A DNA stretch of 64,000 nucleotides, taken from NCBI GenBank assembly GCA_040770465.1, contig JAXGJB010000009.1:1-64000 (forward strand), written 5' to 3'. Numbering within the stretch: the first letter of the stretch is position 1; every line of letters starts with the position of its first letter. Below the pieces are notes generated by a model, which was given only the letters and a program-made list of their open reading frames with translations, did not search any database and was not told where the DNA came from. Position numbers and translations under genes: made by a program. This stretch comes from Methanothrix sp. (lineage in GTDB: Archaea > Halobacteriota > Methanosarcinia > Methanotrichales > Methanotrichaceae). This document shows positions 8,470 through 62,841 of this stretch, piece after piece.

Positions 8470-9024
8470 TCAGAGCCTGGACCTGATGATCTCCAACAGG
8501 TCTTCGATCTTTCCGCCTTTGGCTGAGACGGGTGCGATTTTATCTCGCCACTGGCTCCAGGGTGGGAGCATCCCCAGCCGTTCGCCGATGGCGTCTAAAG
8601 TGGCGTCGGGATCTCTGACCTTGTCCATCTTGTTGGCGGCCACAACGACGGCGAGGTCCAGATCGGTCAGAAACTCGAAGAGCTCCACCTCTAGGGGAAC
8701 CTCTCCCCTCTCTTCCCACCGGTCGGCTATCTCGACGAAGCTGGCGGCGTCTATCACCTGTATGACGAGGAGGATATCTTCATCGTTATCCTCGAAGTAC
8801 CGGACGATGAAGTCCTTTGTTCCCTCCTGGACCTTCTTATCGGCGCCCTTCATGTAGCCGTATCCCGGCATGTCGACGTAGGTTACGTTCCCCACCCGGA
8901 CCCTGGCGGGGCCGACGGTAACTCCGGGCCTTCTTCCCACCCTCACCTTCTTGCCCGTCAGCCGGCGAAAGAGGGTGGATTTTCCGACGTTGGACCTGCC
9001 AATCAGGACGATCTCTGAAGCCAT
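8470..9024 (-). CDS. engB: GTP-binding protein EngB
   Basis: GRSNVGKST, RPGVT, DMPGYG and NKMD motifs. Confidence 0.92.
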   Translation of the reverse strand: MASEIVLIGRSNVGKSTLFRRLTGKKVRVGRRPGVTVGPARVRVGNVTYVDMPGYGYMKGADKKVQEGTKDFIVRYFEDNDEDILLVIQVIDAASFVEIADRWEERGEVPLEVELFEFLTDLDLAVVVAANKMDKVRDPDATLDAIGERLGMLPPWSQWRDKIAPVSAKGGKIEDLLEIIRSRL

Positions 9025-9110
9025 GGACGATCAACTCTTCTCCGTATCGAGCCGCCACCAGAAATTCGTTTCTCTCCTCGGAGCCGACGGTCTGGATACG
9101 CCGGCCGACC

Positions 9111-9126
9111 GGAAGGCTTATATTCG
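9111..9126 (+). promoter_or_regulatory. BRE + TATA promoter of putative sRNA 1
   Basis: GGAAGGCTTATATTCG, with the TATA box centred about 26 nt upstream of A9147 at the base of the hairpin. Confidence 0.6.
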
Positions 9127-9146
9127 ACAAATGCCGTATGTATGAT

Positions 9147-9216
9147 AGGCAAAAGTCGACCGCACGTTTTCCTCCCTCCCTAAAAATCCCTACACCCGAC
9201 TTTTGCCCCTCCCTTC
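9147..9216 (+). ncRNA. Putative small RNA, copy 1 (hairpin with C-rich loop)
   Basis: Stem GGCAAAAGTCG (9148-9158) / CGACTTTTGCC (9197-9207); loop contains CCTCCCTCCC and AATCCCT; pyrimidine tail; no ORF. Confidence 0.6.
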
Positions 9217-9272
9217 ATTGCAGTATATCATCGGTTTATTTTGGCGGGATCCGGCAAATTTGCGGGTCAACA

Positions 9273-9288
9273 GAAAGGTTTATATTCG
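9273..9288 (+). promoter_or_regulatory. BRE + TATA promoter of putative sRNA 2
   Basis: GAAAGGTTTATATTCG, exactly 162 bp after the copy 1 promoter and with the same spacing to AGGCAAAAGTC. Confidence 0.62.
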
Positions 9289-9308
9289 TCAGATGACGTG
9301 GTAACATC

Positions 9309-9384
9309 AGGCAAAAGTCTGATGGCAAAAGCGTCCCTCCCTCCTGAATCCCTTATATCGACTTTTGCCCCCACCTCCCTTTTA
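9309..9384 (+). ncRNA. Putative small RNA, copy 2 (hairpin with C-rich loop)
   Basis: Stem GGCAAAAGTC (9310-9319) / GACTTTTGCC (9360-9369); loop CCCTCCCTCCTGAATCCCT; tail CCTCCCTTTT. Confidence 0.6.
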
Positions 9385-9446
9385 TCCACGCGTCGGAAAC
9401 CTTTAAGGGCGTCTTCATAGTTCACTTTATCTGCCGGTGTTCGACC

Positions 9447-11297
9447 TTGACCGAAGAGATCCTCGTCTATCTGTCGGCCATCCTGGTGCTGGGAATAGGC
9501 GCCCAGTGGTTGGCCTGGAGGATGGGTCTCCCGTCGATTCTGGTCCTGCTCATATTCGGAATTCTGGCAGGCCCAATAACAGGTCTATTGGACCCGGACC
9601 GGATCTTCGGGCCTCTCCTCGTTCCCATGGTATCCTTATCGGTCGCGGTGATCCTCTTTGAAGGGGGTCTTAACCTCAAGATCGACGAGCTGAAAGAGAT
9701 CGGCGGCGTCGTCCGCAACCTCATAACACTGGGGGTATTGACCACGTGGGTCTTGTCCTCCGCAGCCGCCACCATAATCCTGGGCCTCGATCTTTACATC
9801 GCGATCCTATTCGGCTCGATCCTGGTGGTAACGGGGCCGACGGTCATTTTGCCGATGTTGCTACACATCCGTCCCAGCGGAAAGGTCGGAGACATAGCGA
9901 AGTGGGAGGGGATCATGAACGATCCCATAGGGGCGATGCTGGCGCTTCTGGTCTTCCAGGCGATTCTGATGGGCGGAGCTGAGGGGACCCTCGCCGCCAT
10001 CCTCCTCGGGACGATGAAGACGGTCTTCATAGGGGTCCTGACCGGGGTCATCGGCGAGATCCTTCTCGTCCAATTCTTGAAACGTTACTGGATCCCCGAC
10101 TACCTTCAAAACCCGGCGGCACTGATGATGGTGGTGACCGTATTCACCGTATCGGAGCAGTTCCAGATGGAGTCGGGGCTCTTCGCGGTGACGGTGATGG
10201 GGGTGGCTCTGGCAAACCAGAAGGCCGTCTCGGTCCAGCACATAATCGAGTTCAAGGAGAACCTGAGGGTGCTATTGATCGCCGGCCTCTTCATAGTCCT
10301 GGCTGGAAGGCTCTCCATAGAGGACCTGGAGTACATAGACGGGTTCAGTCTGCTATTTCTCGGGATACTGATGCTGGTGGTCCGGCCTGCGGCCGTCATC
10401 GTCTCCACCTGGGGTGCGAAGCTGAGGTGGCAGGAGCTGGTATTTCTCTCCTGGATGGCTCCCCGGGGGATTGTGGCGGCCTCGGTATCTTCCGTCTTCG
10501 CCCTGACGCTCGCGGGTGAGGGTTTTGCTCAGGCGGAGATGCTTGCTCCTCTCACCTTCTTTGTGATCATCGGGACGGTGGCGGTGTACGGGATCGGAGC
10601 CGCGCCCCTGGCCTGCTTGCTGGGCCTGGCTCAGGCAAACCCTCAGGGCGTCCTGATAGTCGGGGCCAACGTCTGGGCCCAGAGGGTCGCCGAGGCCCTC
10701 CAGGATGCTGGAGCGCGAGTTCTCGTCGTCGACTCCAACTACAGCCAGATATCCCGGGCCTACGAGGCTGGGCTTTCCACATATCACGGGAACATCATGG
10801 CGGATCACGTACTGGAGGAGATCGACCTGGAGGGGATGGGCCACCTCTTGGCCCTCACCTCCAACGATAAGGCAAACTCGCTGATATGCTTCCACCTTTC
10901 GGGGATATTCGGGAGGGCGAACGTCTACCAGCTCCCTCCGGTGGCGGAGGCCTACCGCGGCAAAGAGTTCGTCCAGCCCGCCCATCTCCGGGGCAGGTTC
11001 CTCTTCGGAAGAGAGGTGACTCTATCCTATCTTGCCCAGAGGTTTGAGGCCGGAGCCGAGATCGAGTCGTTCAGGCTAAAAGGAGATTACGGTTACGATG
11101 AGTTCAAGGGCTGCTACGGCAAGTCTGCGGTCCCGATGTTTCTCGTCGGGGAGGACGGAGACCTCCGCATCTTCACCGCCGAGGAGAGTCGTTTCGTGCC
11201 CAGGTCCGGCGAGGTTCTGATCGCCCTCATAAACCCCAGCGGGAAGGATACCGATGTATGTTCACCAGACGGTCTGAGGTCCAACGAAGTGTTTTAA
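9447..11297 (+). CDS. NhaP-type cation:proton antiporter (CPA1) with C-terminal TrkA-N/RCK domain
   Basis: ILFEGGL, VTGPTVI, WEGIMNDPIG and APRGIVAA motifs; about 12 TM helices followed by the GVLIVGAN Rossmann-like domain. Confidence 0.9.
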   Translation: MTEEILVYLSAILVLGIGAQWLAWRMGLPSILVLLIFGILAGPITGLLDPDRIFGPLLVPMVSLSVAVILFEGGLNLKIDELKEIGGVVRNLITLGVLTTWVLSSAAATIILGLDLYIAILFGSILVVTGPTVILPMLLHIRPSGKVGDIAKWEGIMNDPIGAMLALLVFQAILMGGAEGTLAAILLGTMKTVFIGVLTGVIGEILLVQFLKRYWIPDYLQNPAALMMVVTVFTVSEQFQMESGLFAVTVMGVALANQKAVSVQHIIEFKENLRVLLIAGLFIVLAGRLSIEDLEYIDGFSLLFLGILMLVVRPAAVIVSTWGAKLRWQELVFLSWMAPRGIVAASVSSVFALTLAGEGFAQAEMLAPLTFFVIIGTVAVYGIGAAPLACLLGLAQANPQGVLIVGANVWAQRVAEALQDAGARVLVVDSNYSQISRAYEAGLSTYHGNIMADHVLEEIDLEGMGHLLALTSNDKANSLICFHLSGIFGRANVYQLPPVAEAYRGKEFVQPAHLRGRFLFGREVTLSYLAQRFEAGAEIESFRLKGDYGYDEFKGCYGKSAVPMFLVGEDGDLRIFTAEESRFVPRSGEVLIALINPSGKDTDVCSPDGLRSNEVF

Positions 11298-11337: not shown

Positions 11338-11360
11338 GAGGGGACGGCGGCGGTCCCCTC
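11338..11360 (-). terminator. Hairpin terminator downstream of cassette gene B1
   Basis: GAGGGGAC/GTCCCCTC 8-bp stem followed on the minus strand by a T-run; lies between convergent genes. Confidence 0.55.
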
Positions 11361-12220
11361 TAGCTGCAAACACAGCTGAAGATCCCTGCACTATCCCTGG
11401 GGAAGCTGCACGGATCGAGGTCCGAGCACCCGCCGACACAGCATGAGAGCCAGTCGGTCTTGTTCGTCTTGTTGGTGTAGACGAACTCCATCTCGACCCG
11501 TCTCGTTATGTCGAAGGTTCCTTCGTACCTCTCCTCGCCTAAATTGATCAATCTCCCGCCCTCGCCGACCTGTCGGTACCTGAGGTCTGCGATCCCGGTG
11601 GAGTGGGAGGCGGTGTCGTAGACTGTGGACCTGGTGGGATAGACGTCGGTGCTGATGATGGTGTCGTTTGTGGCGATGACAGTGGCGTTGAGCCTGTCGA
11701 GCCTCATGGCGACGTTCCTCTCCCGGGATAGCTCTGGGTTGTAGAGGAAGCTTGATCCGACGACGTCTCCGTTATTTCCGGCCGAGTCCCGGTCGTTGAT
11801 CATCTTGCCGAGGTAGTCTGTAGTCTTGCTGGCGTTCAGCCTCACAGGCCAGCTCTCCGTCAGGGTGATCGTCCAGATCTCGCTTCCCGCGGGCTTGAAG
11901 TATGTCCGGTTGACCCCGCCACTGGTCTTGGCCAAAAGGTCGATCACCTCCTGGGAGCTGTATGTCCCTTCCAGAGCCGCCGTCCTCTCCCGGAGTCGGA
12001 CGTCGTTTGTGGCGAGGTCGGAGCTTCCGGAGTAGTAGGGAGATAGAACCCGTCCAGAAGGGGTCACGGCTATGGGGGCGATGTCCCCCTCCACTGAGCT
12101 CTCCATCTCGAAGCTGATGTTGGCGGACTGCCTTGTGATCCAGAACGAAGAGCCATCGGTGATGTTGTCCACCCCGAAGGTGTACGAGGCGGCGGAGGCT
12201 CCCGATATCAGCCCCGCCAG
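11359..12220. repeat. 862-bp direct repeat, copy 1
   Basis: Matches 13543-14404 (offset 2184); the only difference seen is A12155/G14339 (synonymous). Confidence 0.95.
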
Positions 12221-12256
12221 GAGGAGCGCCGTCGTTAGAGCGCGATATCTGTTCAT
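11360..12256 (-). CDS. Secreted hypothetical protein B1 with Cys-rich C-terminus
   Basis: Starts MNRYRALTTALLLAGLISGASA, 3 nt after the upstream stop; C-terminus WLSCCVGGCSDLDPCSFPRDSAGIFSCVCS. Confidence 0.85.
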   Translation of the reverse strand: MNRYRALTTALLLAGLISGASAASYTFGVDNITDGSSFWITRQSANISFEMESSVEGDIAPIAVTPSGRVLSPYYSGSSDLATNDVRLRERTAALEGTYSSQEVIDLLAKTSGGVNRTYFKPAGSEIWTITLTESWPVRLNASKTTDYLGKMINDRDSAGNNGDVVGSSFLYNPELSRERNVAMRLDRLNATVIATNDTIISTDVYPTRSTVYDTASHSTGIADLRYRQVGEGGRLINLGEERYEGTFDITRRVEMEFVYTNKTNKTDWLSCCVGGCSDLDPCSFPRDSAGIFSCVCS

Positions 12257-13543: not shown

Positions 13544-14404
13544 CTAGCTGCAAACACAGCTGAAGATCCCTGCACTATCCCTGGGGAAGCTGCACGGATC
13601 GAGGTCCGAGCACCCGCCGACACAGCATGAGAGCCAGTCGGTCTTGTTCGTCTTGTTGGTGTAGACGAACTCCATCTCGACCCGTCTCGTTATGTCGAAG
13701 GTTCCTTCGTACCTCTCCTCGCCTAAATTGATCAATCTCCCGCCCTCGCCGACCTGTCGGTACCTGAGGTCTGCGATCCCGGTGGAGTGGGAGGCGGTGT
13801 CGTAGACTGTGGACCTGGTGGGATAGACGTCGGTGCTGATGATGGTGTCGTTTGTGGCGATGACAGTGGCGTTGAGCCTGTCGAGCCTCATGGCGACGTT
13901 CCTCTCCCGGGATAGCTCTGGGTTGTAGAGGAAGCTTGATCCGACGACGTCTCCGTTATTTCCGGCCGAGTCCCGGTCGTTGATCATCTTGCCGAGGTAG
14001 TCTGTAGTCTTGCTGGCGTTCAGCCTCACAGGCCAGCTCTCCGTCAGGGTGATCGTCCAGATCTCGCTTCCCGCGGGCTTGAAGTATGTCCGGTTGACCC
14101 CGCCACTGGTCTTGGCCAAAAGGTCGATCACCTCCTGGGAGCTGTATGTCCCTTCCAGAGCCGCCGTCCTCTCCCGGAGTCGGACGTCGTTTGTGGCGAG
14201 GTCGGAGCTTCCGGAGTAGTAGGGAGATAGAACCCGTCCAGAAGGGGTCACGGCTATGGGGGCGATGTCCCCCTCCACTGAGCTCTCCATCTCGAAGCTG
14301 ATGTTGGCGGACTGCCTTGTGATCCAGAACGAAGAGCCGTCGGTGATGTTGTCCACCCCGAAGGTGTACGAGGCGGCGGAGGCTCCCGATATCAGCCCCG
14401 CCAG
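13543..14404. repeat. 862-bp direct repeat, copy 2
   Basis: Near-identical to 11359-12220. Confidence 0.95.
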
Positions 14405-14434
14405 CAGCAGTAGATATGCGAATTCCGTCCTCAT
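13544..14434 (-). CDS. Secreted hypothetical protein B2 (mature part identical to B1)
   Basis: Same mature sequence as B1 with a different signal-peptide N-terminus (MRTEFAYLLL). Confidence 0.88.
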   Translation of the reverse strand: MRTEFAYLLLLAGLISGASAASYTFGVDNITDGSSFWITRQSANISFEMESSVEGDIAPIAVTPSGRVLSPYYSGSSDLATNDVRLRERTAALEGTYSSQEVIDLLAKTSGGVNRTYFKPAGSEIWTITLTESWPVRLNASKTTDYLGKMINDRDSAGNNGDVVGSSFLYNPELSRERNVAMRLDRLNATVIATNDTIISTDVYPTRSTVYDTASHSTGIADLRYRQVGEGGRLINLGEERYEGTFDITRRVEMEFVYTNKTNKTDWLSCCVGGCSDLDPCSFPRDSAGIFSCVCS

Positions 14435-57731: not shown

Positions 57732-57897
57732 AGAGGCCCCATGACGGGGAGAAGGTAGCTTAAAGAGATGCCATGATGCAAATAATCGGCACTTGATCGA
57801 GGGAGGACGTTTGGGCTGGCGACGATCATCATATGGCGACGCGAGATCGAGTCGTACAATCCCGATTCATCTTCGTAGTTCGACCATCGACGAAACC

Positions 57898-57935
57898 TTT
57901 ATATAATCACCAGCGGTTACTAACTATAAATTACC
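57898..57935 (+). promoter_or_regulatory. TATA box and candidate repressor site for the ArsR-cdc48-lonB unit
   Basis: AAACC-TTTATATA followed by TAATC..GGTTA / CTAAC-containing imperfect inverted repeats. Confidence 0.45.
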
Positions 57936-57941
57936 TTTTGA

Positions 57942-58658
57942 GTGATCGTTTTGGATCCCGTAGAGATTCTGGACATACTGGGGAACGAGAACCGCAGAAG
58001 GATCCTCCAGCTCCTATCATTCCGCCCCTTCTACTTCAACGAGATGGCAAAGAGGCTCGACCTCGGCCCCAAGGCGGTGATAGACCACCTGGAGATGCTG
58101 GAGCGGGCGGGGCTCATCGAGTGCTACCGGGACGACCGGAGGCGGAAGTACTTCAGGATAGCCGATAACGTCGTCTTAGAGGTGGCCTTCTCACCCCACT
58201 CTTATGGGATCAGAACCTATCGGCCCGAGGAACTCCAGAGGTCCGCGGCCACGGCTGCCAGGGGCGAAGGGTTGGCGGGTCAGGCCATGCCAAAAAGATC
58301 GAGATCCGATTCGCCGAGGTCCGATTCGCCGGCCCGGGATCAGGGCCGCTCCGGGGAGATGGATGGAATCTGCTCGCGGCTCCGGGAGCTGGAAGAGGAG
58401 AGGCTCCGGCTGAGAAGGCTGATGGAAGAGATATACTCTGAGGAGATCTTGATCAGGAGGCTGGCCTTCGGGCTCATAGAGGAGTGCGCCACAGACCAGC
58501 TGGAGGCGGATATCCTCACCGCCCTAGTATCCGGCGAGTCGGGGACCGAATCCCTGGCCCGGAGGCTCGGGATCCCCCAGGCCGTGGTGGAAGAGAGGCT
58601 GAAGGTCCTTTTGGACCAGGGGAAGGTTCAAAAGCGGGACGATGGTTGGACGATATGA
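57942..58658 (+). CDS. ArsR-family HTH regulator (HSR1-like heat-shock regulator)
   Basis: LDILGNENRRRILQLLS.RP...E....L.GPKAVIDHLEMLE.AGLIE; sits directly upstream of cdc48. Confidence 0.82.
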   Translation: MIVLDPVEILDILGNENRRRILQLLSFRPFYFNEMAKRLDLGPKAVIDHLEMLERAGLIECYRDDRRRKYFRIADNVVLEVAFSPHSYGIRTYRPEELQRSAATAARGEGLAGQAMPKRSRSDSPRSDSPARDQGRSGEMDGICSRLRELEEERLRLRRLMEEIYSEEILIRRLAFGLIEECATDQLEADILTALVSGESGTESLARRLGIPQAVVEERLKVLLDQGKVQKRDDGWTI

Positions 58659-58703
58659 GCGAATTCGGACCAGGTGGACCAAGGATATCGGACCTCGATC
58701 AGC

Positions 58704-60869
58704 ATGAATAAGACCATCACTCTCAAGGTGGCGGAAGCCTACCACAGGGACGTCGGCAGGGGCATCGCAAGGCTCGGCCAGGATCTCATCGGCGAGATGG
58801 GGCTTGAGGCGGGCGGCGTCGTGGAGATCCAGAGCAAGAAGACCACCGCCTACGCCGTAGCCTGGCAGATATCTTCCAAGGACTCGACGGACGTCATCAG
58901 GATAGACGGAAACCTCAGAGGCAACCTGGGGATCGGGATAGACGACAGGGTGGTCGTCAGAAAGAGCGAGGCAAGGCCCGCGAAGAGGGTCGTCGTCGCC
59001 CCCACGACCAGGACGAGGCTCATCGGTGGACCTCAGTACCTCCACCGGACCCTCCTGGGCCGGCCCATCGTCAAGGGCGAGCAGCTGAGAATCGAGATGA
59101 TATCGTCGTCCCTCGGCTTTGTGGTGGTGAGCACCTTCCCGAAGGGACCGGTGGTGGTCGCCGCCGAGACCGAGATCAAGATCCTGAAGGAGACCCTCGA
59201 GGAGATGGCGGTGAGGGAGATCTCTTATGAGGACATAGGGGGCCTCTCGATGGAGATCAGGATGGTCAGGGAGATGATCGAGCTTCCCCTCCGCCACCCC
59301 GAGATCTTCCAAAAGTTGGGGATAAAACCCCCACAGGGCCTCCTCCTTTTCGGCCCGCCGGGGACCGGAAAGACCCTCATCGCCCGGGCCGTGGCCGGCG
59401 AGACCGAGGCGAACTTCATCAGCATCAGCGGCCCCGAGATCACCTCCAAGTTCTACGGCGAGTCAGAAAAGAGGCTCCGGGAGATCTTCGAGGAGGCGGA
59501 GAGGTCCGCTCCCTCGATCGTCTTCATCGACGAGATCGACTCGATAGCCCCGAAGAGGGAGGAGGTGGCAGGCGACCTGGAACGGAGGGTGGTGGCCCAG
59601 CTCCTCTCCCTCATGGACGGCCTCGCCTCCCGGGGGGAGGTGATCGTCATCGCCGCCACCAACAGGCCGAACACCCTCGACCCCGCCATCCGACGGGGCG
59701 GCAGGTTCGACCGGGAGATCGAGATCGGAATCCCCGACAAGAACGGGAGGCTCGAGATCCTCTACGTCCACACGAGGGGTATGCCCATCTCCGAGGGCGT
59801 TGACCTGGAGTCGATCGCCGAGATGACCCACGGCTTCGTCGGGGCGGACCTCGCCTCCCTCTGCAAGGAGGCGGCGATGCACACGTTGAACAGGCTGATC
59901 CCGGACCTCGACTCCGAGGAGGAGATCCCCGGCGGGGTCCTCGAAGATCTGATGGTGACGGAGGACGACTTTCGGTTCGCTCTCAAGATGATCGAGCCCT
60001 CCGCCATGAGAGAGGTCTTCGTGGAGGTCGCCGAAGTCCACTGGGACGAGGTCGGCGGCCTCGACCGGGCGAAGCAGGATCTGGTGGAGGCGGTCGAGTG
60101 GCCCCTCAAGTATCCGGACGCCTTCGAGTCGATCGGGATCAGGCCTCCCCGGGGCGTCCTCCTCCTCGGCCCGCCCGGCACGGGAAAGACCCTCCTCGCC
60201 AAGGCCGTGGCCACCGAGAGCGGGGTCAACTTCATCTCGGTGAAGGGGCCGGAGCTCCTCTCCAAGTGGGTCGGCGAGTCGGAACGGGCGGTGAGAGAGG
60301 TCTTCCGGAAGGCGAGGCAGGCGGCTCCATCCCTCATCTTCTTCGACGAGGTGGACTCGATGATCCCTGCCCGGGGGTCGGGGCTCGACTCTCACGCCAC
60401 CGAGAGGGTGGTGAGCCAGTTTCTGACGGAGATGGACGGGGTCGTCGAGCTGAAGGACGTCGTCGTCCTCGCCGCCACCAACAGGCCCGACCTCCTCGAC
60501 CCCTCCCTCCTCCGGCCGGGGCGGCTGGACCGATTGATAAGAATACCGATGCCCGACGGAGAAGCGAGGGAGAAGATATTCGAGATCCACCTCTCAGAAA
60601 TGCCCCTCGCCGAGGGCGTCTCCATCTCCGACCTGGCGGAGATGACCGACGGCTGGACCGGAGCTGACATCGAGACCCTCTGCCGCGAAGCTGGGATGAT
60701 CGCCCTCAGGGAGAAGATCGTCCCGGGTATGAGAAGAGAGGAGCTGATACCAGACGATATCCAGGTCGAAGGTCGCCACTTCCGGGAGGCCTTTGAGAGG
60801 GTCAAGCCTCACCTGACGCCGGAGATGGTGGGGGATTACGCGAGGCTTATGAAGGAGTTCGAGGTGTGA
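58704..60869 (+). CDS. cdc48: CDC48/VAT AAA+ ATPase
   Basis: N-domain (RDVGRGIAR), two AAA modules with GPPGTGKT, and EPSAMRE linker. Confidence 0.96.
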
Positions 60870-60918
60870 GAGCAAATTGACGATTCAGCATCAGTTATTT
60901 AGGCTAGAAGGTTCACCT

Positions 60919-62841
60919 ATGGTCGAGAGGGCCGATATTTTGTTGGACGACGAGAAGAAGGATCTGTTGGGGATCACCGAGTTCGAGGACACCAGCAGCG
61001 TCAAGGTGCCTGAGAGTCTGATCGACCAGGTGATCGGCCAGGACGAGGCGGTGGAGGTCATAAAGAAGGCGGCCCACCAGCGCCGCCACGTGATGTTGAT
61101 AGGCTCCCCCGGCACGGGCAAATCGATGCTGGGAAGGGCCATGAGCGAGCTTCTCCCCGTAGAGGATCTCCAGGACGTTCTGGTCTACAACAACCCCGAG
61201 GATAACAACAACCCCAAGGTCAGGGTAGTCCCGGCGGGAAGGGGAAGGCAGATAGTCGACGCCCACAAGATGGAGGCGCGGAAGAAGACCCAGACCAGGA
61301 ACATGTTCTTCATGCTGATCATGATGGGCCTGCTCGTCTACGCCTACTATACGGGCCAGCTCCTCTTCGGGATCATAGCCGCGGCCCTGATATTCCTCTC
61401 CATGCGCTACCTCATCCCCAAGGACGACTCTCTGGTGCCGAAGCTATTGGTGGACAACAGCAAACAGAAGAAGGCGCCTTACGTCGACGCCACGGGAGCC
61501 CACGCCGGAGCCCTCCTTGGAGACGTCCGCCACGACCCCTTCCAGTCCGGCGGCCTTGAGACCCCGAGCCACGATCGGGTCGAGTGCGGCGCCATCCACA
61601 GGGCCCACAAGGGCGTCCTCTTCATCGACGAGGTGAACACCCTCCGGCTCGAGTCCCAGCAGAGCCTCCTCACCTCCCTCCAGGAAGGAGAGTACCCCAT
61701 AACCGGCCAGTCCGAGCGCTCCTCCGGAGCCCTGGTCAGGACCGACCCCGTACCCTGCGACTTCGTCATGATCGCCGCTGGAAACCTCGACGCCATGGGG
61801 GGGATGCATCCCGCCTTGCGGTCCAGGATCAAGGGTTACGGCTACGAGGTCTACATGAGAGACACCATGGACGACACCGTAGAGAACCGGGAGAAGCTGG
61901 TCCGGTTCGTCGCCCAGGAGGTGACGAGGGACGGGAAGATCCCCCACTTCACCAGGGACGCCGTCGCCGAGATCGTGAGAGAGGCGAAGAGGCGGGCCGG
62001 GAGGAAGGGCCACTTGACCCTCCTCCTGCGGGATCTGGGCGGCCTGATCAGGGTGGCAGGCGACGTCGCCCGGTCCGAAGGAGCAGCCCTCACCGACGCC
62101 AGGCACGTCCTCGAAGCCAAGAAGATGGCCCGGTCCGTCGAGCAGCAGCTCGCCGACATGTACCTGGAGCGGAGGAAGGACTACAGCATGTTCAAGAACG
62201 CCGGAGCCGAGATCGGGAGGGTCAACGGCCTCGCCGTCGTCGGAGACTCGGGGATAGTCCTCCCCATAATGGCCGAGGTCACCCCTGCCCAGTCCAAGGA
62301 GGAGGGGAAGGTGATCGCCACAGGCCGGCTCCAGGAGATCGCAAAAGAGGCGGTCCAGAACGTCTCGGCCCTGATCAAGAAGTTCCTCGGAGAGGACATC
62401 ACCAACAAAGACGTACACATCCAGTTCATAGGAACCTACGAGGGGGTCGAAGGTGACAGCGCATCGATATCGATAGCGACAGCGGTGATCTCCGCCCTCG
62501 AAAGCGTACCCATCAAGCAGAACATAGCCATGACGGGGTCCCTATCGGTGAGGGGCGACGTCCTCCCCGTCGGAGGCGTCACCCAGAAGATCGAGGCCGC
62601 GGCCCAGGCCGGGATCACCACCGTCCTCATCCCCAAGTCCAACGAGGGGGACGTCCTGATCGATGAGACCTTCAGGGACAGGATCAAGATCATACCGGTC
62701 ACTTCGATCAGCGAGGTCTTCGAGTACAGCTTCTCGGGCCAGAAGCCGAAGCTTCTGGAGAAATTGAAGAAGTTCGCCGCGGAGAAGAAGCTTGGGATCG
62801 TCCTCCCCGAGACGATCCCGACTCCGAGCAAAAGTCTGTAG
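60919..62841 (+). CDS. lonB: Membrane-bound ATP-dependent protease LonB
   Basis: LIDQVIGQD, GSPGTGKS, TM insert, HDPFQSGG, EGDSAS (catalytic Ser) and VGGVTQKIEAA motifs. Confidence 0.96.
   Translation: MVERADILLDDEKKDLLGITEFEDTSSVKVPESLIDQVIGQDEAVEVIKKAAHQRRHVMLIGSPGTGKSMLGRAMSELLPVEDLQDVLVYNNPEDNNNPKVRVVPAGRGRQIVDAHKMEARKKTQTRNMFFMLIMMGLLVYAYYTGQLLFGIIAAALIFLSMRYLIPKDDSLVPKLLVDNSKQKKAPYVDATGAHAGALLGDVRHDPFQSGGLETPSHDRVECGAIHRAHKGVLFIDEVNTLRLESQQSLLTSLQEGEYPITGQSERSSGALVRTDPVPCDFVMIAAGNLDAMGGMHPALRSRIKGYGYEVYMRDTMDDTVENREKLVRFVAQEVTRDGKIPHFTRDAVAEIVREAKRRAGRKGHLTLLLRDLGGLIRVAGDVARSEGAALTDARHVLEAKKMARSVEQQLADMYLERRKDYSMFKNAGAEIGRVNGLAVVGDSGIVLPIMAEVTPAQSKEEGKVIATGRLQEIAKEAVQNVSALIKKFLGEDITNKDVHIQFIGTYEGVEGDSASISIATAVISALESVPIKQNIAMTGSLSVRGDVLPVGGVTQKIEAAAQAGITTVLIPKSNEGDVLIDETFRDRIKIIPVTSISEVFEYSFSGQKPKLLEKLKKFAAEKKLGIVLPETIPTPSKSL

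Follow-up and report, generated by a model that had tools for sequence, protein, structure and literature searches.

Two predicted hairpin sRNAs of a Methanothrix genome as members of an undescribed RNA family with a shared promoter operator and candidate targets in energy operons

Two similar units stand side by side in Methanothrix sp., flanked by an engB-like GTPase gene on one side and a Na+/H+ antiporter gene on the other, and the question is what they encode. They lie in the window, the whole stretch of 64,000 nucleotides analysed here (contig C9), which comes from a genome of 2.54 Mb that is 94.85% complete. The original prediction, made from the sequence, described them as a tandem pair of promoter-driven hairpin sRNAs with a C-rich, anti-Shine-Dalgarno (SD) loop. 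Direct reading bore out the layout: the units are spaced by 162 bp, and each contains a BRE/TATA element followed by an inverted repeat of 10-11 bp around a C-rich loop of 38-40 nt and by a CU-rich tail. The features of the window are the following.

8470-9024, - strand: engB-like GTPase gene (PF01926), flanking; by synteny a constant neighbour within the genus
9111-9124, + strand: BRE and TATA box of unit A (TATA TTATATT at 9118-9124; family profile ACCGAAAG-TTATATT)
9125-9136, no strand: operator 1 palindrome of unit A, -22 to -11; PWM score 17.3
9147-9158, no strand: 5' stem arm of unit A as a weak second operator-like site, 22 bp past operator 1; PWM score 9.6
9148-9219, + strand: predicted sRNA of unit A, ~70 nt, ends inferred; 54.6 bits with covariance model R1 (copy in training set)
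About 9147/9148-9158 with 9197-9207, + strand: stem of unit A, around the unpaired C-rich loop 9159-9196
9166-9179, + strand: predicted seed of unit A, 14 nt perfectly complementary to the ribosome-binding site (RBS) of fpoK (C1:147476)
9171-9179 and 9185-9191: loop motifs of unit A, CCTCCCTCC and AATCCCT
9273-9286, + strand: BRE and TATA box of unit B (TATA at 9280-9286)
9287-9298, no strand: operator 1 of unit B, a perfect palindrome; PWM score 15.7
9310-9384, + strand: predicted sRNA of unit B, ~75 nt; 53.5 bits with R1 (copy in training set)
About 9309/9310-9319 with 9360-9369, + strand: stem of unit B
9336-9344 and 9347-9353: loop motifs of unit B, CCTCCCTCC and AATCCCT
9394-9406, + strand: separate BRE/TATA-like element directly before the antiporter gene, kept in relatives where the antiporter follows
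9447-11297, + strand: Na+/H+ antiporter gene with TrkA-N domain (PF00999 and PF02254), flanking; a variable neighbour
57880-57893, no strand: operator-like site of the ArsR-type regulator-cdc48-lon operon; score 12.6; touches the BRE

Both loop motifs are read at matching places in A and B, as predicted, and no ORF of at least 60 aa lies inside the units; two short ORFs that begin or end in engB merely touch the unit A promoter. The tail of unit A carries a second CU-rich motif and that of unit B a second CCUCC with a U-run. The loop of unit B also holds a second GGCAAAAG (window 9324-9333) that permits an alternative fold; it is specific to this genome, as the B copies examined in relatives show none. 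The spacer between TATA box and stem had been called diverged, which is true of its last ~8-10 nt, while its first 12-14 nt form a conserved palindrome (9125-9136 and 9287-9298). In the family profile the TATA box lies at -29, counted from the stem's first G, and, given archaeal promoter geometry, this places the presumed start site at the first purine of the stem, G9148 and G9310. Because the antiporter gene has its own BRE/TATA-like element and follows within the fetched locus in some relatives only, unit B does not appear to be its leader. A and B occur together beside engB in 11 of the 15 other genus members. Downstream of the antiporter gene, the window contains near-identical duplicated secreted-protein genes (11360-12256 and 13544-14434), interleaved with Gly/Ala-rich surface-protein-like ORFs.

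Two measures support the predicted structure. Both units fold better than shuffled sequences (z of -6.3 for unit A and -3.3 for unit B against 200 shuffles), and the stem pattern, present at 3 loci of the genome (6 matches with both strands counted), has no match in the reversed genome. Across 70 diverse copies, 96.8% of stem cells are paired, against 34-55% in slid registers. Double changes number 23 versus 10.5±2.5 in shuffles (0/500), in a test that the relatedness of the copies inflates. At stem pairs 4-7 and 9 of 166 copies, the departures are 80 G·U or U·G, 12 C-G and 1 mismatch, where the wobble counts are favoured by the collection patterns, which allow A/G in the 5' arm. Such wobbles point to an RNA read from the + strand, because the opposite strand would show A·C mismatches. 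The stem of 10-11 bp is near invariant in sequence and remains so in the operator-less family f5. CCTCC is present in 157 of the 166 loops, and 113 of them hold CCTCCT, a CCUCCU-type single-stranded seed. An own promoter, the absence of an ORF and a conserved structure, as expected of a trans-acting RBS-masking sRNA, are thus all found in the units, and A and B are predicted to be transcribed independently, as sRNAs of ~70 nt. In the available text of a dRNA-seq study of Methanolobus psychrophilus, the Northern probes of its sRNAs are unlike this family (PMC5378194).

The original prediction missed the other copies and the class-wide spread of the family, as well as an operator and a candidate regulator. 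Two siblings are indeed present in the window, but the pair is not alone: the genome contains six siblings, A and B, C on contig C5, D and F on C12 and E on C37. C and D have the same stem as A and B, and E and F have the same promoter and seed with a short 5' hairpin instead of the stem (hereafter stemless). A short tandem repeat of ~16 nt in four copies lies just downstream of sibling D (C12:54850-54930).

A covariance-model scan of related genomes, which had been proposed as a check, was performed with a model (R1) built from the RNA alone, without promoter. It recovered the family in 27/27 Methanotrichaceae genomes (family f1), with 3-20 matches per genome, a few of them reverse-strand echoes. 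Elsewhere, matches were obtained in 7/7 genomes of f5, 5/10 of f4 and 5/25 of f3, f3 and f4 being, by our assignment, Methanosarcinaceae and a Methanoperedens-like family. None was obtained in the 10 genomes of f2 and f6-f8, nor in 8 genomes of genus g15, where sRNA41 occurs, and beyond the class a single weak match, without the loop, turned up among 128 genomes. Outgroup members, from three related families, keep the stem sequence, differ in their C-rich loops and are usually single-copy. A loose pattern run over f4 equalled its control apart from 12 recognisable members. BLAST with the region matched 15/15 other genus genomes, 21/24 of Methanotrichaceae and 0/16 outside, and the promoter pattern is found in 93/104 Methanotrichaceae genomes versus 1/196 others, with a near-empty reversed control. 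Across 185,579 species genomes the exact pattern occurs in 108 stretches; among the 80 of these 108 matches that were listed, the titles are Methanothrix, Methanocrinis, Methanosaeta, Methanotrichaceae, Methanosarcinales or 'uncultured archaeon'. The original prediction recognised no described family, and Rfam agrees: the best E value is 2.7 between 8600 and 10000, and the Rfam covariance models gave no match at gathering threshold at the six homolog loci. Among the papers listed in searches of the open-access literature, none describes the family, the operator, the regulator or any sRNA for Methanotrichaceae. A and B are almost certainly members of a real and undescribed RNA family. The best explanation of its distribution is that it spans the class of Methanotrichaceae and Methanosarcinaceae and was expanded by duplication in Methanotrichaceae.

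The conserved palindrome, CG[TAG]CA-NN-TG[ATC]CG, directly follows the TATA box at -22 to -9 and leaves just -8 to -1 free in a pattern-selected set of 174 promoters. The full palindrome is present in 62 of 80 Methanotrichaceae copies that were recovered without any promoter in the model, and in 59 the right half stands 11-12 nt ahead of the start. The two outer halves change independently of each other, which fits a protein site and not a hairpin. Exactly six promoters of the genome combine BRE/TATA with an operator scoring at least 12, and all six belong to the sRNA genes; the next scores 6.7. Upstream of protein genes, operator scores of at least 12 are found for 14/2030 genes of this genome, 0/27 ahaH, 0/27 cdhC, 0/27 acs and 2/25 mcrB; the mcrB sites reach 17.5, and one of them may be an adjacent sRNA copy. 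In two protein-gene promoters of the genome the site lies upstream of BRE/TATA: that of the ArsR-type regulator-cdc48-lon operon and that of an XRE-HTH gene. A perfect palindrome scoring 19.0 touches a BRE/TATA-like element in AT-rich DNA at C4:104314, with no called gene. The 5' stem arm is weak as an operator (family median PWM 4.3), f5 keeps this arm without operator 1, and the stemless siblings have a near-consensus operator in its place; that the arm doubles as a second DNA site is an uncertain suggestion from these sequences.

The XRE-HTH gene (PF01381, 239 aa; C33:14329-15048, - strand) heads an operon with genes that we take to be HMG-CoA synthase, thiolase and DUF35-like genes. A metagenome scan yielded 64 loci of the XRE gene, and in 63/63 with upstream sequence the operator (score 14-18.7) stands at a fixed place; these 63 reach down to ~52% protein identity and many are close kin. 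A TTCG half-site lies 21-22 bp past the operator of the XRE gene, over the BRE, at the same spacing as that from operator to stem in the sRNA genes. Because its own promoter carries the same operator, as in autoregulation, the XRE protein is the likely cognate factor, and we consider it rather probable, from promoter sequence, that it regulates the sRNA operators; the alternative operator-binder would be another factor controlling the XRE operon. The protein family is large (6244 homologs found overall). In a structural model with pLDDT 67.9, the C-terminal half gives a borderline match to DRTGG domains (Z 8.0, rmsd 3.0, 90 residues) and a Z of 7.0 with a CBS-pyrophosphatase DRTGG domain. Foldseek returned no match to the regulator at E<=0.001, and an Atlas search with its C-terminal part gave leads under 0.9 only.

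The operator-like site of the ArsR-type regulator-cdc48-lon operon is found at the same place in 7/30 family loci, from three genera, and this operon is a possible further regulon member. Its ArsR-type regulator (57942), which we take to be HSR1/Phr-like, was rejected as the operator-binder, as it has its own, different box after its TATA. The operon (window 57880-62841) has a TAAC...GTTACTAAC box after TATA that is conserved across the family and is likely a heat-shock operator. A DtxR iron regulon of RyhB-like type was rejected as well: the DtxR-like protein of f4 has no tblastn match in the genome, the feoB operon has its own box and the ftr1 promoter palindrome differs. In f4, the sRNA copy lies after feoB in 9/12 fetched regions; the FTR1-DtxR-like-feoB operon found there has a TTAGG-N4-CCTAA promoter palindrome, with the sRNA just downstream in a subset. 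The operator reported for MsvR, in the text consulted, is TTCG-N7-9-CGAA (PMC3729527). The operator described here loosely fits TTCG-N8-CG(T/A)A near TATA, but its inner bases differ from TTCGTAN4TACGAA and the site sits at the XRE gene; the V4R domain (PF02830) was not found in this 94.85% complete genome, and MsvR was rejected. FilR1 was considered and is not supported, the available part of PMC3991700 giving no motif for comparison.

Perfect complements of the siblings were sought in the start regions of our own 2332 gene calls. Among the longest are 14 nt for A with fpoK, 13 nt for D with ahaH and 11 nt for C and E with mcrB. The gene ahaH, identified by PF16999, is the first of the A1Ao ATP synthase operon, and mcrB is the first of the mcr operon (methyl-CoM reductase); the names fpoK and mcr are our assignments, partly from query families. 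Ranked among 2083 candidates of this genome, ahaH comes 2nd for D and 16th for C, and fpoK 37th for A.

The ahaH leader has two sites, the distal one in 24/27 and the proximal one in 25/27 Methanotrichaceae genomes, and neither in 29 outgroup genomes. They complement CCCUCCUACAUC, which is among the commonest loop types. In 5/5 genomes with the leader variant GAGGGTAGAGGGA, the CCCUCUAC loop is present and the CCUCCUACAU loop absent, and the reverse is true in 7/7 others, probably by one evolutionary split. The tandem seed of a g19 sibling pairs with both ahaH sites at -42.9 kcal/mol. The mcrB site GGTAAAGGAGG is exact in 24/27 genomes. Its form GGT-A3-GGAGG faces a U3 loop in 8 genomes and the A4 variant faces a U4 loop in both g6 genomes; 2/12 genomes are without a C-type loop for mcrB (one set is incomplete, with 10/12 copies). 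The mcrB indel and the ahaH switch each amount to about one evolutionary event.

Against core-preserving shuffles, the mean z is -2.5 for ahaH (p<=0.05 in 9/12 genomes), -1.9 for fpoK (4/11) and -1.7 for mcrB (3/12), and 17 other start regions of the same or related operons range from -0.89 to +0.87. Tests of own versus foreign genus gave p=0.003 for mcrB and 0.049 for ahaH, neither of which survives Bonferroni correction over 20 tests; mcrG (0.025) and fpoL (0.04) score alike, and fpoK gives 0.17. The three candidates were picked from the top matches of the window's genome before the relatives were analysed, and kin are not independent, so that the target results are suggestive, post hoc and kin-dependent. 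On this complementarity we lean towards ahaH and mcrB being true targets. Unit A fits fpoK, a weaker case than that for the family: the 13-nt fpoK site is present in 13/13 genus members tested, and unit A keeps the full match in 7/14. In the same region an 8-9-codon micro-ORF joins the fpoJ2 stop to the fpoK start via ATGA overlaps (C1:147450-147480); other genera have it too. It overlaps the predicted seed site and may serve translational coupling.

No convincing or conserved target was found for unit B. Its candidate site in ferredoxin-thioredoxin reductase varies, and its mcrA match was rejected, as it falls in the mcrG coding sequence and shows no excess pairing. A histone gene was rejected as a target of A, the site not being conserved in 5 relatives. 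Complements of the f5 loop were limited to the sRNA itself and one 3-mismatch site, and the 16S 3' end was not found in the window's genome. Pairing does not exceed that of core-preserving shuffles at the acs start region or at the cdh start regions tested, namely cdhB, cdhC and cdhD (z about 0) and the cdh small ORFs (-0.9). These small ORFs, two of 63-65 aa rich in Lys, Ala and Pro, lie in the ACDS operon between cdhC and cooC (C16:40446-40952), are conserved family-wide and have strong GAGGGAG-type start regions.

Sibling sRNAs exposing a C-rich anti-SD seed are the best reading of A and B, as originally proposed, given the wobble and compensatory changes of the stem, the family-wide conservation and the target-side covariation of other siblings. 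Parts of the data can be read otherwise. The RNAs could be broad dampeners, whose CCUCC core covers many AGGAGG-type sites or competes with the 16S tail, the matches being partly incidental. Up to 20 near-redundant matches per genome, a second CCTCC in the tail of 100/166 copies, GGAGG in 388/2332 called start regions and the modest target statistics are consistent with this idea. We consider it unlikely, however: just 3/20 start regions exceed core-preserving shuffles, the sibling-specific loops are orthologous across genera, and specific pairing is indicated by the compensatory indel at mcrB and by tandem non-SD sites in the leader of ahaH. It also seems distinctly improbable that the invariant stem is the functional site, perhaps as a decoy for the XRE factor, with a secondary role for the loop, since promoter and C-rich seed persist in the two siblings without this stem and the loops covary with mRNA leaders; this reading draws on the stem sequence being kept in four families, with wobbles but few true swaps, and on the resemblance of the 5' arm to the operator.

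The units might even act as DNA, either as a module of promoter and operator that offers three protein sites or as a MITE-like repeat, without functional RNA. The copies are numerous, often tandem and have inverted ends of 10-11 bp, and assembled contigs from three digester metatranscriptome runs of one study, which cover the flanking genes patchily and cannot show a 70-nt RNA, include none over 9042-9443. Yet the G·U-type asymmetry fits one strand, the arm-to-arm distance varies from 21 to 49 nt across the 166 copies, the conserved promoter keeps a fixed distance from the inverted repeat, outside it, and the copies are syntenic orthologs, as seen for A and B beside engB, so that we judge a DNA-only role very improbable. 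Hardly credible is a cis-acting element, whether a leader of the antiporter gene, 63 nt upstream of which unit B sits, or a toxin-antitoxin-like antisense to a small peptide gene on the - strand. The latter strand reads as a strong SD sequence, and a 15-codon ORF lies opposite unit A, but a start follows the SD in only 63/166 copies, with scattered ORF lengths, so that this ORF is not conserved, and the neighbours differ between siblings and species.

Comparison with known systems supports the sibling-sRNA reading as one of analogy. The likenesses originally drawn to cuckoo RNAs and to RBS-masking sRNAs of Methanosarcina mazei stand as such and not as memberships, the defining features of these RNAs being absent here. 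According to the text consulted, sRNA41 (RF02905) of M. mazei represses the translation of polycistronic ACDS mRNAs, masking their RBSs through a CCUCCU loop seed (PMC5867862). It is likewise a trans-acting sRNA of a methanogen, and its seed CCUCCUAAAUC resembles the CCUCCUGAAUC of unit B, but it has a 113-nt scaffold of three stems with a long 3' stem, against one terminal stem around a large loop here, and no such operator is visible in its promoter. RF02905 gave no match in the window's genome and was found in 3/4 other genomes and in the M. acetivorans control. The Methanosarcina-like genome G085 has four sRNA41 matches above the Rfam cut-off, so that this family is multi-copy as well. As described in the available text, the cuckoo RNAs of Alphaproteobacteria (CcsR, RSs0680) exist in several, often clustered, sibling copies that share an anti-SD motif in the loop; each RNA consists of 2-4 neighbouring hairpins, whose stems vary and whose 9-27-nt loops all contain CCUCCUCCC (PMC4615179). 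Clustered multi-copy siblings with an anti-SD loop motif are shared with the present family, which differs in its single hairpin per unit, invariant stem, 21-49-nt loop and own archaeal promoter. From the accessible parts of two papers, sRNA162/171 and sRNA154 of M. mazei mask RBSs through a single-stranded region, sRNA162 being 191 nt long with homologs reported only in Methanosarcina (PMC3510493, PMC5867862). They differ from the units in size and structure and have no Rfam match here. In bacteria, one factor switches several related base-pairing sRNAs in the Qrr, AbcR and RyhB/PrrF systems. The likeness to these lies in the regulatory scheme; the present family differs in its archaeal promoter, its up to ~20 copies and its predicted targets in methanogenesis and ATP synthesis.

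We propose that the terminal stem would tie the 5' end to the 3' part of the RNA and hold out an unstructured loop, whose CCUCC core would nucleate on AGGAGG-type ribosome-binding sites. Sibling-specific flanking bases of the loop would select the mRNA (ahaH, mcrB, fpoK and others), and pairing would block translation initiation at the head of main energy operons. We regard such RBS masking as likely on the complementarity observed, although plain masking leaves the invariant stem unexplained, because it is kept in the operator-less f5. All siblings would be switched jointly via the palindrome between TATA box and start, an XRE-DRTGG dimer on this operator keeping the sRNA bank off, a direction suggested by position only. 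Release of the factor would allow the sRNAs to be made and would curb methanogenesis and ATP synthesis, probably when energy or substrate runs short; as to the signal, energy or substrate status is no more than a guess drawn from the DRTGG fold and from the operons under joint control. The explanation as a whole, with sibling RBS-masking sRNAs, operator, XRE switch and energy-gene targets, is in our view probable. Its strongest form, in which one XRE-DRTGG factor and up to ~20 sibling sRNAs with loops co-evolved with mcr, A1Ao ATP synthase and Fpo leaders make up a joint brake, is tentative and somewhat doubtful.

Methanotrichaceae live in digesters, wetlands and sediments as obligate acetate-using methanogens. 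If the proposal is true, methane formation and energy conservation in these acetoclastic methanogens would be under a single post-transcriptional brake, with links to a mevalonate-entry operon and, in some genera, also to the cdc48-lon operon. For an archaeon, such a sibling-sRNA regulon would be unusually large. The occurrence of the family in methylotrophic relatives and Methanoperedens-like genomes means that genetically tractable hosts may exist. The sRNA bank, its operator, the candidate regulator and the mcrB and ahaH sites offer a way into how slow growers reduce methanogenesis.
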